DNA of 64,000 nucleotides from a virus: IMG/VR virus record IMGVR_UViG_3300042374_001687, positions 32,001 through 96,000 of that record; one strand, written 5' to 3'. Each line of letters starts with the position of its first letter. Within the stretch, counting starts at the first letter, position 1. The notes beneath the pieces were generated by a model. The model had not been told where the DNA came from and searched no databases. It saw nothing but the letters and a program-made list of their open reading frames with translations. A program made the position numbers and the translations under genes. This document shows positions 1 to 46,549 of the stretch, in pieces.

Positions 1-1
1 T

Positions 2-1189
2 CCGACGAAGGATCAAGCCCAACTGCTTGACAAGCATTTTGGATGCGTAAGGTATGTGTACAACCACTTCCTTGAAAGAAGGATCAAGTTCTACGCAGAG
101 AACGAGGAAAAGAAAGACCACAAGAAGTCCTTGAACTACTACGACGATGCCGGCGAGTTGACCAAGGTGAAGAAGGAACTGGCTTGGTTGAGGGAAACGA
201 ACGCTCAAGCCCTGCAATTCTCGCTCCGATGTCTGGAGATAGCCTACAACGGATTCTTCTCCAAGAAGACCAAGTTCCCGAAGTTCAAGAAGAGACACGG
301 CAGACAGTCGTTCACTGTCCCGCAGGCAATTTCTTTGAGTAACAGCAAAATCAAAATTCCAAAGTTCAAGGAAGGAATCAAATACGATAACCACAGAGAA
401 GTGCAAGGAAAGATTTGCCACGCAACGATAAGCAAGAACAAGGCGGGGCAATACTTCGTCTCAATCAATGTTAAAAAGGAAATCAAGCAACTTCCCAAGG
501 TAGAAAAAATAGTCGGAGTCGATTTGGGATTGAAACACCTTGCAATTCAGAGTGACGGCAAGAAACACAAAAACATCCGTCCATACAAGAGCCTCCGCTC
601 GCAACTCAAGAAGTTACAGCAAAGATTCAGCAGGACGGAGAAGAAAAGCAAACGGCACGAGAAATTGAGAGTCCGAATCGCCAAGCTGTACCAGCAAATG
701 GTCAACATCAGGACAGACCATCTCCACAAGGTCTCTACAAAGATTGTTCGTGAGAACCAAGCGATAATCCTCGAAGACCTTTCGGTGAGGAACATGATGA
801 GGAACCACAAAGTTGCAGGTGCATTCGGCGATGCGGCGGTTTCGGAGTTGACGAGGATGATTAAGTACAAGGCAGGGTGGTATGGAAGAACGGTTTGCAA
901 GATTGACCGGTTTTTTCCTTCAAGCAAGCAGTGCTACGACTGTTTATATATCAATGACTCCTTGACTCTCAAGGATCGTGATTGGACTTGTCCAAGATGC
1001 GGGGTGAGGCATGACCGTGATTTGAATGCCGCACGAAATATTCTGCGTCAAGGACTAAATAAACTAAACCGTGGGAACCACGGGGTTGGCTCGGGGAGCG
1101 GAAAGAAGACCTTAAAGGCGGATCAAGGTCTGCCGGAGGGGCATTCTGCGTTGAAGCGAGAAACCCACCCGTCTTTGGCGGATGAGTAG
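2..1189 (+). CDS. tnpB: IS200/IS605-family RNA-guided endonuclease TnpB (5'-truncated by the window edge)
   Basis: The frame is open from nt 2 (PTKDQAQLLDKHFGCVRYVYN, HTH_OrfB-like). RuvC-I GVDLGLK, RuvC-II LEDLSV, Zn finger CYDC...CPRC and RuvC-III DRDLNAARNI are present, so the D-E-D triad is intact. Confidence 0.96.
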   Translation, partial: PTKDQAQLLDKHFGCVRYVYNHFLERRIKFYAENEEKKDHKKSLNYYDDAGELTKVKKELAWLRETNAQALQFSLRCLEIAYNGFFSKKTKFPKFKKRHGRQSFTVPQAISLSNSKIKIPKFKEGIKYDNHREVQGKICHATISKNKAGQYFVSINVKKEIKQLPKVEKIVGVDLGLKHLAIQSDGKKHKNIRPYKSLRSQLKKLQQRFSRTEKKSKRHEKLRVRIAKLYQQMVNIRTDHLHKVSTKIVRENQAIILEDLSVRNMMRNHKVAGAFGDAAVSELTRMIKYKAGWYGRTVCKIDRFFPSSKQCYDCLYINDSLTLKDRDWTCPRCGVRHDRDLNAARNILRQGLNKLNRGNHGVGSGSGKKTLKADQGLPEGHSALKRETHPSLADE

Positions 1190-1210
1190 TTCATATAGGT
1201 TTTGTAGTTA
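1067..1210 (+). ncRNA. TnpB omega-RNA (reRNA) overlapping the tnpB 3' end and IS right end; guide about 1195-1210
   Basis: AACCGTGGGAACCACGGGG...TTGAAGCGAGAAACCCACCCGTCTTTGGCGGATGAGTAGTTCA matches the typical IS605 right end (subterminal hairpin then GTAGTTCA). It aligns by eye with the element at 44797-44910. Boundaries are approximate. Confidence 0.75.
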
Positions 1211-30515: not shown

Positions 30516-32806
30516 CCAATATTCCCAAGACAAGTAACTTTCCGAACTCTTTTGACACTGACAATAACCTTTTTTTGGTTCACGACTCTTTGAGGGTAAG
30601 ACTGCTGGAGGATTACAATCCTGGCGATAAGAGCATTCTGATTGAGGGAGACACAGAGGTTATAAACAAGTTCCCTCCCACGGGAATAATAACTTTGACA
30701 GAACAGTGCAGCGATATAGACAAGCGAGCATTGAGCTTTTACTACAATTCAAGAACTGCGAGTAGTTTTGACGAGTTGGAACTGCTGCCTGAATTTTTGG
30801 GCCTTGAGATTGCCAAGCCGAAAAAGGCCACCAATGTGACGATGAATGTCTTGGATCTCCATCATAATCATTTAAAGGACGCCTTGATCTCGGTTGAAAG
30901 TTTTTTGGGAACAAAATACTCCCCAAATGAAAACAGCATATCGGGAAGGATAAAGTTTTTAAATGAATTGGTGCTTTCTCCAAAGGCTTGGTTTACCGTT
31001 GAAAGTCAAATTGGACTTTCCTCTCAAGGAAATCCATTCAAGGCCAAATTCAAGGATGAAAGCGTCAGGTTGGGAGACGGCCCCTTCACGCACCACTGGG
31101 ACTTCGGTGACGGATCCACGTTGGAGTTTGTTTCGGAAAGCATGGAAGAGTACAAATCGAGGCTGACGGAAATAGACGGGGTGAATATTTCGGGAGCTGA
31201 ATTAGTCAAGACATATGATTCTCCCGGGCTTTATACCGTCAAGTTGACTGTGAGCAACAAATACGGGGACAGCGATGTGGAATTCAACGATTTGATCAAT
31301 GTAAAAAACGAAGCTCCAGAGGAAGCAGTAATTAGAATAATCCCAAGTGCCTCTCAGAACTACAACCAAGGGGATGTGGCCAACGGCATATATCCGAGGA
31401 TAAGATCCATAGCAAACTCATTCATCAACATAGAGATACCGGAAGGAAACAATCCCGAAAATCCTGGCTATTCTTATGGAGGAGAATTGCTTAATGCCGG
31501 GACTCCTGTTGATCCCATAGAGGAATATACATGGTCTCTCGGCGACGATCTTCCTCATTCCAATTCAAGCTTGGCAAAGGCCTCGTACAGTCTTGGTGGG
31601 TATTACGACATAGTTCTTAGAGTTGATACAAAATACGGATCTTACCGAATAACACAATATAAGGATTCTGTTGATATTATTGAAGCCAAAAACCTATGGA
31701 TGTTTAATTTCAAAACTCTAAATAACAACGGAAGCGGTACGGTTCAGGCCTACGAGTTTTCTCTCGGCAGCGAGACATTCAAAACCTTGGGAAACCAAAC
31801 TCTTTCTGTGCAGAGGAGCGATGCCTTTTTGGATAGCAGTCCGCTTTCCTATAACGATGAGCAGTATTATTCAGACACGCTTGGAAGGGCGGTCAAAGAG
31901 TTCCGCAGAAATGTAGAGTTCACTCTTGCCGGAACGGCCAGTTCGGGAAACAAAGGCAACTCCTTGCTTTTTTGGGCATCTGGTGGCTCTGTCATAGATG
32001 ACAAGAACATAAAGATCGCAAAATACAACGCCTTTGATGACGCTTATGAAAGCGTAAATTCAATAACGAACAGACCATGGAACTGGGCCGCATTGAACTC
32101 ACCCGATAGAACTTATTTTATTTTTGGACAAGGACCAACAACAATTTCGGGTCAAAATCAAACTCTGGCCCAGAGGTTGGATTACAACATACTTACACAA
32201 TCAGCATCCGCTCCAATAGAACTAACGACCTCAAGTTTTGAAAATGGAGCGGACGAATTACTAGAACATCCTTCCTATTTTGATGAAGATGGGCTGGCTA
32301 CCAATGGCTACTTCGCCGTATACAGAACTGCCTGGAAGGATTCTGTCGGATACATACTCAGGAACTCTTCGGTCAATGAGTTCTTCAGACTTTCCGATTT
32401 CTACAAGACGAAAGGCACGGTATCGGATCCCTATGGAACTATAACCAAACTCCCCAGCATGATCGGTTCTGTCAAGTTGGAAGGGCAATTAGTCGCCTTG
32501 TACAATGGAATATTTATGTTCAACAACTCGGGCGAGATATGCGCTTGGAATGACACTTCTTTGACTTGGGAAGTGGGTCGGGCAAACTCATCATCATTGT
32601 CTTTCAGATCCGTCCAAGACACCAGCAAGTCAAACTTTGACGACAAATCAAACACGCTTCTGGCGGCGTCTGATAATGACAGAATCGCTTATTTAAGTTA
32701 TGACTACAGCGTAAAGGCCATGATAAAGTTCAACGGAACGGATCTCACTTTCTCCATGGCGAAAACAAGGCCTTCCGGCACCCAGTTCAAATTGGGAGTT
32801 TATTGA
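30512..32806 (+). CDS. PKD-domain virion protein (paralog 2)
   Basis: HWDFGDG...YDSPGLYTVKLTVSN and a second WSLGD..GYYDIVL. Beta-rich C-terminus. Confidence 0.82.
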   Translation: MTNIPKTSNFPNSFDTDNNLFLVHDSLRVRLLEDYNPGDKSILIEGDTEVINKFPPTGIITLTEQCSDIDKRALSFYYNSRTASSFDELELLPEFLGLEIAKPKKATNVTMNVLDLHHNHLKDALISVESFLGTKYSPNENSISGRIKFLNELVLSPKAWFTVESQIGLSSQGNPFKAKFKDESVRLGDGPFTHHWDFGDGSTLEFVSESMEEYKSRLTEIDGVNISGAELVKTYDSPGLYTVKLTVSNKYGDSDVEFNDLINVKNEAPEEAVIRIIPSASQNYNQGDVANGIYPRIRSIANSFINIEIPEGNNPENPGYSYGGELLNAGTPVDPIEEYTWSLGDDLPHSNSSLAKASYSLGGYYDIVLRVDTKYGSYRITQYKDSVDIIEAKNLWMFNFKTLNNNGSGTVQAYEFSLGSETFKTLGNQTLSVQRSDAFLDSSPLSYNDEQYYSDTLGRAVKEFRRNVEFTLAGTASSGNKGNSLLFWASGGSVIDDKNIKIAKYNAFDDAYESVNSITNRPWNWAALNSPDRTYFIFGQGPTTISGQNQTLAQRLDYNILTQSASAPIELTTSSFENGADELLEHPSYFDEDGLATNGYFAVYRTAWKDSVGYILRNSSVNEFFRLSDFYKTKGTVSDPYGTITKLPSMIGSVKLEGQLVALYNGIFMFNNSGEICAWNDTSLTWEVGRANSSSLSFRSVQDTSKSNFDDKSNTLLAASDNDRIAYLSYDYSVKAMIKFNGTDLTFSMAKTRPSGTQFKLGVY

Positions 32807-44030: not shown

Positions 44031-44528
44031 TAGTGCCATTCCCATTTTCATTGTGATTGTCTCTCCATCCGACACTGTTATGTTTCTACTTAATGGGGCG
44101 GATGATATTAGAACATTATTTGTTCCATAACCAAGATTTGTTGTAAGAAAAATATTCTTTACTGGTCCCCATGCTCCGCCGGTAGCCTTGAATAGTATGA
44201 CTGGGCTGTTGGCTTGACGATGTCCCGAATTGGTCGTCACAACATCAAAACTATCCGGCTGTATTTGTTGCCTCTCGTAGGCATTGTCTGTGGGTTCGAA
44301 GCCGAACAAGGATCCTATGCCCACCGAAGGATCCAAAAAGGTTCTAGAGTCTAGTCCGATATAGTATTTTTCAGGCACGGACAATCCGGCGAACAATATC
44401 TTTAAAATCAGTTCTTCGCCCGCGTAATGAAGAATGTTTTTGACATCCTTTTCTATGTGGAGCAATTCTCCATTCTTTGAAAGATGCTTGATCTCAAGAA
44501 CTTTCATTAAGCCGCGCCACTCTTTCAT
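44019..44528 (-). CDS. tail/baseplate-associated protein, distant paralog of 25267-25740
   Basis: NILHYAGEELIL...YYIGL...YERQ..F.A...WGPV......L......V..GETIT is a fibre N-terminal-type pattern. Confidence 0.65.
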   Translation of the reverse strand: MKEWRGLMKVLEIKHLSKNGELLHIEKDVKNILHYAGEELILKILFAGLSVPEKYYIGLDSRTFLDPSVGIGSLFGFEPTDNAYERQQIQPDSFDVVTTNSGHRQANSPVILFKATGGAWGPVKNIFLTTNLGYGTNNVLISSAPLSRNITVSDGETITMKMGMALSNC

Positions 44529-44568
44529 TGTATCCCCTTTATTAACTTTGTCCCACATATATACGATC

Positions 44569-44793
44569 ATGGAATTTAAAAGATGGCTGGCTGAGGTGGG
44601 TGGCTCTGGCGGAATCGGGGGAGGATTGACTCCACCCTTGGAAAAAGCCACCGGATACTCCGGGGCATTCGCCGACTATCATGGAAAGGGGGCGAGCGAT
44701 CCCAAAAATCCCAATGGCACTCTTCCGCCCGTACCTCAAAAGGTCTTCCGAAGGGATTTCAAAAAGAAAGCAAAAACCTTGAGAAAGGTCTGA
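44569..44793 (+). CDS. small protein with capsid-targeting-like leader (MEFKRWLAE)
   Basis: ATG 4 nt after CATATATAC. Gly/Pro-rich body and basic tail. Confidence 0.6.
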   Translation: MEFKRWLAEVGGSGGIGGGLTPPLEKATGYSGAFADYHGKGASDPKNPNGTLPPVPQKVFRRDFKKKAKTLRKV

Positions 44794-44796
44794 TAT

Positions 44797-44979
44797 GTGA
44801 ACTACCCACTCCCCTAAAGGGAGTGGGCTTCCTGCTTCAACCTCGGTTGCCCTTGATTGCTCTCAGGTCTTACACCAAGTCCACAGGCTATTCCCGTAGT
44901 TCCTGCGGTTCTTTTCGCTTCATTAACCGCCATCTATCCCAGCCCCTAAAGGGACTGGGTTTTCTGGCGGCGAGGATAT
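44797..44979 (-). mobile_element. non-autonomous IS200/IS605-derived element (PATE/MITE) carrying a TnpB omega-RNA scaffold
   Basis: On the minus strand: left-end hairpin CCCAGTCCCTTTAGGGGCTGGG, scaffold AACCGCAGGAACTACGGGAATAGCC...TTGAAGCAGGAAG and right-end hairpin CCCACTCCCTTTAGGGGAGTGGG then TAGTTCAC. No ORF. The left boundary is inferred from a flanking TTTAT. Confidence 0.85.
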
Positions 44980-44989
44980 ATAAAGAGCC

Positions 44990-46549
44990 ATGACAAAAGA
45001 CCAAATACTAAGACAGATAGACTCCATAATAGACGGTTGGGTCAACGACACAATTTCCAGTTTGACATCCGGCAAGTCAGAGGTTCAACCAAGAGGAATA
45101 TGGGACAGGCTCAAAGGCACATTCTATAACTTAAGGTATGGAAGAAACGACAAGCAAAACAACCCATATTATTGGAAGAACAGATTTGGCGATGAATTGG
45201 GAACAAAGCAAGAGTGCCACAACCCGTCATCCCTCACGCTTTCAGAGTATTGCGTCTTGAAATCTACGGTAAATGAGGCACAGACGATAATAAATGAAGC
45301 GTTAGATCCCGAGACGGAAAAGTTACGGCTTGTTCAACTTATTAGAAAGGCGGCGGAAGACCTTAAGGGTCGACTTCGCTCTGTTCTTTCCGCTTGGGAT
45401 ATGACCCAAGCCTCTTCCGGGAGCGGTATGGAGAAGGCCACCGCGGACAGAAATGTGGGAGGCGCCTCCGCGGGAAATAAAAAAGATCCCGAACCTGTTC
45501 CTAGCAGCGATGTAGACAATTCTCATGCTGGTGAGGAAGCGAAAACAGCAGCCGTGACCGGAGGTGCAGAGACGGCGCCCGTGAGCGGCGGTGTGGAGAC
45601 GGAGCCCGTGACCGGAGGTACGGAGACGGCACAAAGCGCTGCAAAATCAAGTGGCGGAAAATTGCCGACGGTTAGTGCGGCGGATGGCGGAAATGCAGTG
45701 GGGACAAACAAAGGTAAAAAAACAGAGACAGACTTAAAAAAGAGTATTCGAGAAGCTGCAAAAACCAGAAAAGAAAGTCCTAGCAATTTAACTCCTCAAG
45801 TTTCTTGGCTTAATTCTGGGGGGAGGTTAGTCAAAGAAAAAATGCCTTGGGTAATAGCTTGGATTTCTACCATGCCTCATGCTAGCTATGACGACGAAAT
45901 CATAGAGAGGGAATTAAAAAACAAGGATCGAGTTGGAGACAAATTCGCTTCCAAATTCAAAGGTCTGGCGTGGAAAAAGGAAGGTCACAGATCTTTGATC
46001 AGAGGCCTAAGGCAACACTTGGGCTTAATTTCTGACGAGGATTTCAAGAAAATAATTCACGACTTGACAGGTGGCGATACCGTAGATGCTGAAATTTCTA
46101 GATCAAAACAAGAAGTTAAGCCCGGGGCTGAGAAAAAGACCAAACAAAAAGAGGATCCTAAACAATCTGCGGTTTCTTCTAGGGGGGGCGAAAAGGAACA
46201 AGATCAAGATTCACCTAAAAAAGACGAAGAGAAAAAGAAGGATCTCCTCAAAACACTTTATGAGGGGAAGACAACAAAGGAGATACTTGACGGCATAAAA
46301 AGCAGATTGCTTTCGCCCTCGTGGATATTTCTAGGAAAGGACGAATCAATAGGCAGAAAATTCAACACACTCATGGGCAAGCTGAGGGCTCAGTATGGGG
46401 GTGACGACGACAAAACTCCGAACGCTCAAGAAGAAAGCAAGAATGGACTTATCATCAAAATTGCAAGTGGCGATCTATTAAAGGACATCCTGCAGACTGT
46501 TGGCTCGGGAAAGCTTAAAGAATCTGATCTGATTGGATTTTTAGGCTAA
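44990..46549 (+). CDS. hypothetical protein with low-complexity linker (possible internal head protein)
   Basis: 519 aa with short 10-aa repeats (TAAVTGGAE/TAPVSGGVE/TEPVTGGTE, ~45545-45630) and K/E-rich disordered stretches. Confidence 0.7.
   Translation: MTKDQILRQIDSIIDGWVNDTISSLTSGKSEVQPRGIWDRLKGTFYNLRYGRNDKQNNPYYWKNRFGDELGTKQECHNPSSLTLSEYCVLKSTVNEAQTIINEALDPETEKLRLVQLIRKAAEDLKGRLRSVLSAWDMTQASSGSGMEKATADRNVGGASAGNKKDPEPVPSSDVDNSHAGEEAKTAAVTGGAETAPVSGGVETEPVTGGTETAQSAAKSSGGKLPTVSAADGGNAVGTNKGKKTETDLKKSIREAAKTRKESPSNLTPQVSWLNSGGRLVKEKMPWVIAWISTMPHASYDDEIIERELKNKDRVGDKFASKFKGLAWKKEGHRSLIRGLRQHLGLISDEDFKKIIHDLTGGDTVDAEISRSKQEVKPGAEKKTKQKEDPKQSAVSSRGGEKEQDQDSPKKDEEKKKDLLKTLYEGKTTKEILDGIKSRLLSPSWIFLGKDESIGRKFNTLMGKLRAQYGGDDDKTPNAQEESKNGLIIKIASGDLLKDILQTVGSGKLKESDLIGFLG

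Follow-up and report, generated by a model that had tools for sequence, protein, structure and literature searches.

Does the 183-bp stretch between two co-oriented phage genes act as a guide RNA gene for a nuclease encoded elsewhere, or is it what remains of an insertion sequence? An initial annotation took it for an IS605-type mini-element that is essentially a stand-alone TnpB guide RNA gene. We analysed it within a window of 64,000 nucleotides, bases 32001-96000 of a 143,618-bp IMG/VR virus record whose CheckV completeness is 28%. The element is very likely a PATE that keeps an omegaRNA module. Its origin as a PATE-like mini-element, by insertion followed by internal deletion, is very probably the best explanation overall. 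This copy is more likely a recent, idle passenger; its activity as a trans guide, which would follow by analogy with known systems, is possible but doubtful. The features discussed below are listed in Table 1.

Table 1. Positions, strands and supporting evidence for the mini-element, its parts and its surroundings (window coordinates)
Feature	Position	Strand	Basis
Window's only tnpB, 404 aa; possible non-cognate partner	1..1188 (starts 28 nt before the window)	+	Pfam HTH_OrfB_IS605, OrfB_IS605 and Cas12f1-like_TNB
OmegaRNA scaffold of the window's tnpB, with decayed right end	1055..1194	+	covariance model R1, 101 bits
Upstream flanking gene, 74 aa (MEFKRWLAE...)	44569..44793	+	translation; ortholog of the 68-70-aa gene in L043, L046 and L048
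Predicted 16-nt guide, the right-end flank ATATCAGACCTTTCTC	44781..44796	-	assigned by position and by analogy with TnpB omegaRNAs (PMC10055086)
Whole protein-less IS200/IS605 derivative (PATE-like), 183 bp	44797..44979	-	13 + 183 nt spacing compared with relatives; both end hairpins; no supported ORF
Complete omegaRNA-type scaffold (stem 1, long-range stem, right-end hairpin)	44797..44922	-	covariance model R1 and covariation
Tail TAGTTCAC after the right-end hairpin	44804-44797	-	
Right-end hairpin CCCACTCCC-TTTAG-GGGAGTGGG	44805..44827	-	inverted repeat I2, 9-bp perfect arms (44805-13/44819-27); same right end in 20 IMG/VR loci
Internal-deletion junction, microhomology TAA	44925..44927	-	left end fused here to the final ~127 nt of the parent IS
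Left-end imperfect palindrome	44927..44970	-	inverted repeat I1, 21-nt arms (44927-47/44950-70), 76% complementary; near-identical to left ends L011-L027
Left-end core hairpin CCCAGTCCC/GGGGCTGGG	44938-44959	-	lies within the longer imperfect palindrome
TATATA promoter-like box across the left-end junction	44977..44982	.	top-ranking hexamer in front of ORFs; relatives have it in their empty sites
TTTAT target, the TAM-position motif flanking the left end	44980..44984	-	precedes 14/15 other left ends in IMG/VR
Downstream flanking gene, 519 aa, no known family	44990..46549	+	homologs of 42-47% identity in syntenic loci

The window encodes a large terminase, baseplate wedge proteins and tail fibres. 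DNA of this phage is present in lake-water metagenome runs from 2018 to 2024, and contigs syntenic at the mini-element locus reach 147, 248 and 386 kb. Taken together, these observations indicate a large tailed lake-water phage. The gene order in the syntenic contigs is PD-(D/E)XK nuclease, trypsin-like protease, a 170-aa gene, a Gp80-like gene, a 130-137-aa gene, a 68-70-aa gene and a 52x-aa gene. The 130-137-aa gene lies between the Gp80-like and the ~70-aa genes of the relatives (L043:2371-2784, L046:2386-2778) and is missing from the window (44528-44568). No relatives were obtained when IMG/VR was searched for related loci with the 519-aa protein alone or with the window's TnpB alone. The 519-aa protein was found in none of five IS-bearing phage records, a blastn search of the mini-element locus against the phage collection gave no matches, and no family was matched in an Rfam gathering scan of the window.

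The sequence between the two genes is as originally described, 183 bp with a hairpin at either end, the element's own orientation being the minus strand. Read on that strand, it consists of the left end preceded by TTTAT, an interior of ~70 nt, the right-end hairpin and the tail TAGTTCAC, followed by the flank ATATCAGACCTTTCTC. The left and right hairpins repeat each other in direct orientation (79% over 33 nt) and are not inverted ends; there are no terminal inverted repeats. Such mutual direct repeats are expected for the ends of IS200/IS605 elements. The internal loop of the left end has two substitutions private to the mini-element (GATAGATGG versus GATGAATGG). The open reading frames inside are chance ones only, and the interior corresponds to the last ~40 codons of a tnpB without a start. 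Thus the claim that the coding sequence has been lost and the scaffold kept holds, with no supported ORF and a full-length covariance match.

The same end architecture is seen in non-autonomous tnpB-only IS200/IS605 elements with a TnpB of the ISDra2 type. In these the hairpins are subterminal, cleavage falls ~20 nt upstream of the left hairpin and 8 nt downstream of the right one, and the omegaRNA overlaps the 3' end of tnpB; the mini-element, unlike them, retains nothing of tnpB except the last ~40 codons. The motif at the TAM position, TTTAT, presumably differs from that of ISDra2.

Comparison with the syntenic contigs defines the insertion. In five of them (L043-L048) the distance from the TGA of the small gene to the next ATG is 13 nt (...CCTTGATAT ATACATCGAC ATG), whereas in the window the same gap is 196 nt, that is, 13 + 183 (...GGTCTGATAT, 183 nt, ATAAAGAGCC ATG). 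The insertion length equals the element exactly, and there is no target duplication. The dinucleotide AT is present at both edges, so that the boundaries are ambiguous by 2 nt. At the left tip the mini-element has two extra bases compared with its closest relatives. TTTAT had been proposed as the candidate TAM, and indeed, among 15 further left ends of the family in IMG/VR, 14 have it directly on their 5' side.

An empty site in relatives had been suggested as a check. The uninterrupted 13-nt arrangement was found, in relatives whose proteins are 42-47% identical; however, no isogenic empty site was recovered. The syntenic relatives have TGTAT and not TTTAT at the TAM position and differ at six of the 16 guide positions, and they are best read as displaying the ancestral arrangement rather than an isogenic empty allele. 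The exact empty joint had no matches in JGI metagenome contigs. Contigs of four lake-water runs either carry the filled allele only (X1 has it whole; a contig of X6 covers 44566-44940 without differences) or break at the hairpin repeat. No contig joining across the mini-element was found in these four runs, where coverage in X5-X7 is thin and broken at the hairpin repeat.

The parent of the mini-element can be identified. Over the last 127 nt (AATGAAGCG... to ...GTAGTTCAC) the mini-element shares 96.9% identity with the 3' end of the tnpB-only element L024 and 93-95% with L020, L038, L041 and L058, while full-length copies of the L024 type differ among themselves by 2-5%. The left end is also closest to that of L024. 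Alignment with full-length L024 and L020 demonstrates how the two parts were joined: the left end ..GGCGGTAAAC.. and the 3' part ..ACTTAATGAAGCG.. became ..GGCGGTTAATGAAGCG.., the join reading ...GGCGGT/TAATGAAGCG... with TAA present in both parental sequences. The deletion took the promoter region of tnpB together with all of the gene except ~40 codons at its end. As noted initially, the interior also aligns with the 3' end of the window's tnpB, with ~71% identity over 1055-1194, which is far beyond chance. However, derivation from that gene, which had been implied, does not follow: the scaffold is 71% identical to the window's at the nucleotide level and ~97% identical to that of L024, and the TnpB proteins of the two lineages share 52-53% of amino acids. 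The mini-element is thus not derived from the window's tnpB, and these comparisons identify it as an internal-deletion derivative of the L024-type tnpB-only IS lineage.

The scaffold was analysed with the covariance model R1, built from nine scaffolds at the ends of intact tnpB genes, with all mini-elements left out. The mini-element matches model positions 1-132 of 132 with 126 bits (E 1e-40), compared to 101 bits for the scaffold of the window's tnpB and 25 bits for a solo hairpin. A scan of the 143.6-kb record yielded no match beyond the mini-element, the tnpB's own scaffold and this 48-nt solo hairpin, which lacks a scaffold. Hence, in place of the several dispersed guides of the initial annotation, the model finds one orphan scaffold in the record. 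Three helices make up the consensus fold: stem 1 (6 bp), the long-range stem (5 bp) and the right-end hairpin. Over 12 family members 96% of the cells pair, and five pairs have compensatory double changes; the observed values were reached in none of 500 shuffles, and slid controls gave at most two such pairs.

The mini-element and the window's scaffold differ by compensatory double changes at three pairs, two of which belong to the long-range stem and one to stem 1. The covarying stems described earlier are to this extent confirmed, but the stem-1 pair quoted as an example also holds a C.A mismatch private to the mini-element. This mismatch, which replaces a conserved U-A of stem 1, is the sole private substitution in the scaffold, and with it the predicted minimum-energy fold has no stem 1. 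Since the divergence of the mini-element is close to the range of functional copies, the intactness of the scaffold is uninformative about selection after the loss of tnpB; as far as the sequence can tell, it indicates only that the deletion is recent.

Which nuclease could use such an RNA? The product of the window's tnpB matches the ISDra2 TnpB structures over the full length (E 2e-77), and its RuvC D/E/D motifs GVDLG, LEDL and HDRD align with identical catalytic residues in an alignment to a homologous designed nuclease. The right-end hairpin of this tnpB has two mismatches compared with L007 and L053. The left-end hairpin is absent upstream of it (genome positions 31868-31971), whereas the 91%-identical L053/L054 have TTTAT followed by the left end, plus an intact right-end hairpin. 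By this comparison the tnpB element of the window looks immobilised, with its ORF intact. It encodes the only TnpB found in a search of the 143.6-kb record, which is 28% complete; no L024-type TnpB was detected there. A genome scan for the latter produced one 97% match, located on a 7.9-kb contig that is binned as a proteobacterial MAG and is too short to name a host. Given the shared TTTAT motif, the three helices and the conserved single-stranded motifs, cross-use is conceivable, that is, the window's TnpB might load the RNA of the mini-element.

No Y1 TnpA was found in the 143.6-kb record. On the other hand, the complete 215-kb phage G003, which holds L008, has 13 TnpB TNB-domain matches and one Y1 TnpA, the latter adjoining a tnpB with a right end of the same family; another TnpA occurs in L043/L044. 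Judging from these matches, TnpA exists in the gene pool of these phages.

The guide proposed in the initial annotation is the right-end flank ATATCAGACCTTTCTC. Its position, by analogy with TnpB omegaRNAs, supports this assignment. The flank overlaps the TGA stop codon (44791-44793) of the upstream 74-aa gene. No other match with at most two mismatches was found in the rest of the 143.6-kb record; since the predicted guide matches its own site only, the sole predictable target is the element-free version of that site. This corresponds to the published model of homing and retention.

The mini-element is antisense to the two flanking, co-oriented genes, and the region that separates the left end from the tnpB start in the parent has been deleted. 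No promoter was found upstream on the mini-element strand in a scan with the sigma-70 consensus. With the parental upstream region deleted, no sigma-70-like promoter and an orientation antisense to the neighbours, the description as a stand-alone guide RNA gene is not supported. There is, however, the TATATA box at the left-end junction. In the whole record TATATA is the top hexamer within 60 nt upstream of ORFs (11.8-fold enrichment), often 10-19 nt from the start codon, and is probably the main promoter box of this phage. Its occurrences have almost no flanking consensus or directional context, and the junction copy faces the 519-aa gene on one strand and the mini-element on the other. More generally, the TTTAT target of this IS family overlaps TATATA boxes, and once an element has inserted, its left-end terminus re-creates a TATA-like box.

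The deletion junction was not seen a second time in the record, in IMG/VR or in JGI metagenome contigs; thus mobility as a mini-element is not supported.

The mini-element shares its ends with a family of more than 30 IMG/VR loci. Scanning IMG/VR for the left-end motif yielded 15 true copies, and the right-end scan yielded 20 loci. The tnpB-only elements with these ends (L020, L024, L038, L041) are ~1.29 kb long, and the same ends also bound elements whose TnpB is of a second or third type (L024b, L026, L015). A composite of cargo, tnpA and tnpB occurs in L043/L044, a relative syntenic at the mini-element locus. Protein-less mini-elements with these ends are L012, L013, L028 and L056. Among protein-less elements of related big phages, L028 (80 bits), L013 and L056 retain scaffolds, whereas those of the shorter mini-elements L012 (24 bits) and L027 are degenerate.

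Further variants were observed in the same family. In the cargo elements L011, L014, L018 and L026 the ends enclose unrelated ORFs behind a (CA)n-ACTATATA-RBS module. This module follows the left end and precedes an ORF starting with MKSFNEW or MKSFNEY; the bodies after the leader differ between elements (see also L043:340-720). The CACTATA motif found inside the cargo-bearing relatives occurs at chance frequency in the present record and is absent from the mini-element. Solo hairpins of 48 nt stand directly after TTTAT in L027 and, outside the window, at genome positions 123965-124012 of this record (minus strand). They fuse the 5' half of the left end (CCGCCAGAAAACCCA...) to the tail of the right end (...GGGCAGTTCGC); they are REP-like and appear to have arisen by recombination between the left and right hairpins, which are direct repeats. 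In L017 a right end finishing in GTAGTTTAT is directly followed by a left end, an arrangement that identifies the right-end terminus of one element as the TTTAT target of the next, producing a tandem insertion. Phage G003 contains at least two orphan scaffolds (L056, L057); one of these belongs to an element that is protein-less, ~200 nt long and has a TATATT box ahead of its scaffold. A 91%-complete relative was considered as an example of a cognate pair and rejected: the scaffold of its mini-element L028 is only ~67% identical to the best TnpB-linked scaffold there, and hence that record provides no clean example of an orphan guide together with its own nuclease.

These comparisons give the history of the mini-element. 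An L024-type tnpB-only IS entered, in minus-strand orientation, just 3' of TTTAT, its site being the 13-nt spacer with the TATATA box that separates the 74-aa gene from the 519-aa gene. A deletion through the TAA microhomology, which probably happened at this site, then took out the sequence between the left-end hairpin and the last ~127 nt, leaving the left end, the full omegaRNA scaffold and the right end. Following the published TnpB model, the minus strand, if transcribed (e.g. from the junction TATATA), would yield the scaffold joined to the guide ATATCAGACCTTTCTC. A compatible TnpB could load this RNA in trans. This TnpB might be the immobilised, 52%-identical one of the window or an L024-type protein encoded in the ~70% of the phage genome that has not been sequenced; it might also come from the host or from another phage infecting the same cell. 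The loaded TnpB would then cut element-free alleles having TTTAT and a match to the guide, and recombination would copy the element in.

It is moderately probable that only the early part of this history applies, the L024-type IS having decayed in place and the scaffold surviving only because the deletion is recent and chanced to spare the 3' end, so that the remnant is not transcribed, loaded or mobilised. The single copy, with a junction seen nowhere else, points to an inert relic, as do the loss of the native upstream region, the lack of a promoter match, the antisense orientation and the private changes in stem 1 and the left-end loop. Moreover, the same record holds both the 48-nt solo-hairpin relic and a tnpB with decayed ends, which suggests that in-place decay is common here, and shorter mini-elements with degenerate scaffolds are known from other loci. 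However, both hairpins of the present element are intact, the right one being a perfect 9-bp stem, and the full-length scaffold is retained. Facing into the element is a TATATA box such as is enriched ahead of this phage's genes, and full scaffolds are kept by independent protein-less elements elsewhere. That the insertion persists because of an effect in cis on the flanking operon seems highly improbable. In that reading, the hairpins and a T-run on the plus strand could terminate or attenuate transcription between the 74-aa gene and the 519-aa gene, with the junction restoring TATATA in front of the latter. There is a terminator-like site on the plus strand (44894-44908), and TATATA keeps the position that it has in the empty sites, 7 nt ahead of the ATG. 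However, terminator-like matches in the region are at chance level (two found, 1.2 expected), and a TATA-like box is preserved in most copies of the family because of the left-end terminus (A, then T or C) together with the TTTAT target.

The initial annotation suggested phage-phage competition, with one TnpB, perhaps that of the window, serving several dispersed guides. In this reading the window's TnpB would be directed by the present RNA and by further guides dispersed elsewhere, a multi-guide weapon against rival phages. This TnpB is indeed intact, with three domains and the RuvC motifs, and the ends of its gene are decayed, so that it is not simply a mobile IS; its lineage uses TTTAT, and the two scaffolds share three helices and conserved single-stranded motifs. 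Nevertheless, such a weapon is improbable. The scaffold is closer to that of the lineage whose TnpB is 52-53% identical (~97%) than to the window's (71%), the orphan scaffold is the only one in 143.6 kb, and the guide matches its own insertion site, a configuration of selfish homing, and not a gene of a competitor. Distant relatives differ from the guide at 6/16 positions and have TGTAT for TTTAT. With a single orphan scaffold from a non-cognate lineage in a self-site configuration, the competition scenario finds no support here, the idea itself extrapolating from the published homing model. A related proposal, that a domesticated, immobilised TnpB is armed with guides carried on gene-less mini-elements of other IS lineages against co-infecting relatives, is very improbable. 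If it were true, one nuclease would serve heterologous orphan guides, driving loci into co-infecting relatives or destroying them.

An internal-deletion derivative of an L024-type element finds its closest counterparts among the PATE-like minimal elements described in Geobacillus stearothermophilus by Meers et al. 2023 (PMC10055086). PATEs often encode omegaRNAs that would need a TnpB from another IS in trans (PMC10055086, Discussion); the trans-omegaRNA idea for such elements is therefore already published. Like the Geobacillus PATEs (PMC10055086), the mini-element is protein-less, has ends in common with tnpB elements, a TAM 5' of the left end and a guide corresponding to the right-end flank. 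Unlike them, it resides in a phage and not in a bacterial chromosome, and as a single copy; the TnpB of the parental lineage is absent from the same record, and the origin is readable as a deletion of an L024-type element.

Two further groups provide more distant parallels. REP sequences and MITE-like relics of IS200/IS605 elements are likewise short palindromic remnants of ends, and the solo hairpins of this record and of L027 are of that form. The 183-bp element, on the other hand, has two distinct ends and a structured interior of 113 nt. The homing endonuclease genes and mobile introns of T4-like phages offer a functional analogy only: the predicted cut of the element-free allele in a co-infecting relative would be followed by copying through recombination. 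Unlike in these systems, recognition would here be RNA-guided and the nuclease encoded elsewhere.

If active, the mini-element would be a minimal selfish unit composed of two hairpins and a guide RNA and relying on a nuclease encoded elsewhere, a situation resembling intron homing during co-infection. As it stands, it is a well-documented phage example of a class noted in bacteria, whose deletion origin can be read and for which both the TTTAT target and the empty-site arrangement are defined. More interest than in this copy probably lies in the wider family, in which tnpB-only, tnpA plus tnpB, cargo, mini and solo-hairpin forms share one type of left and right end across large lake phages.
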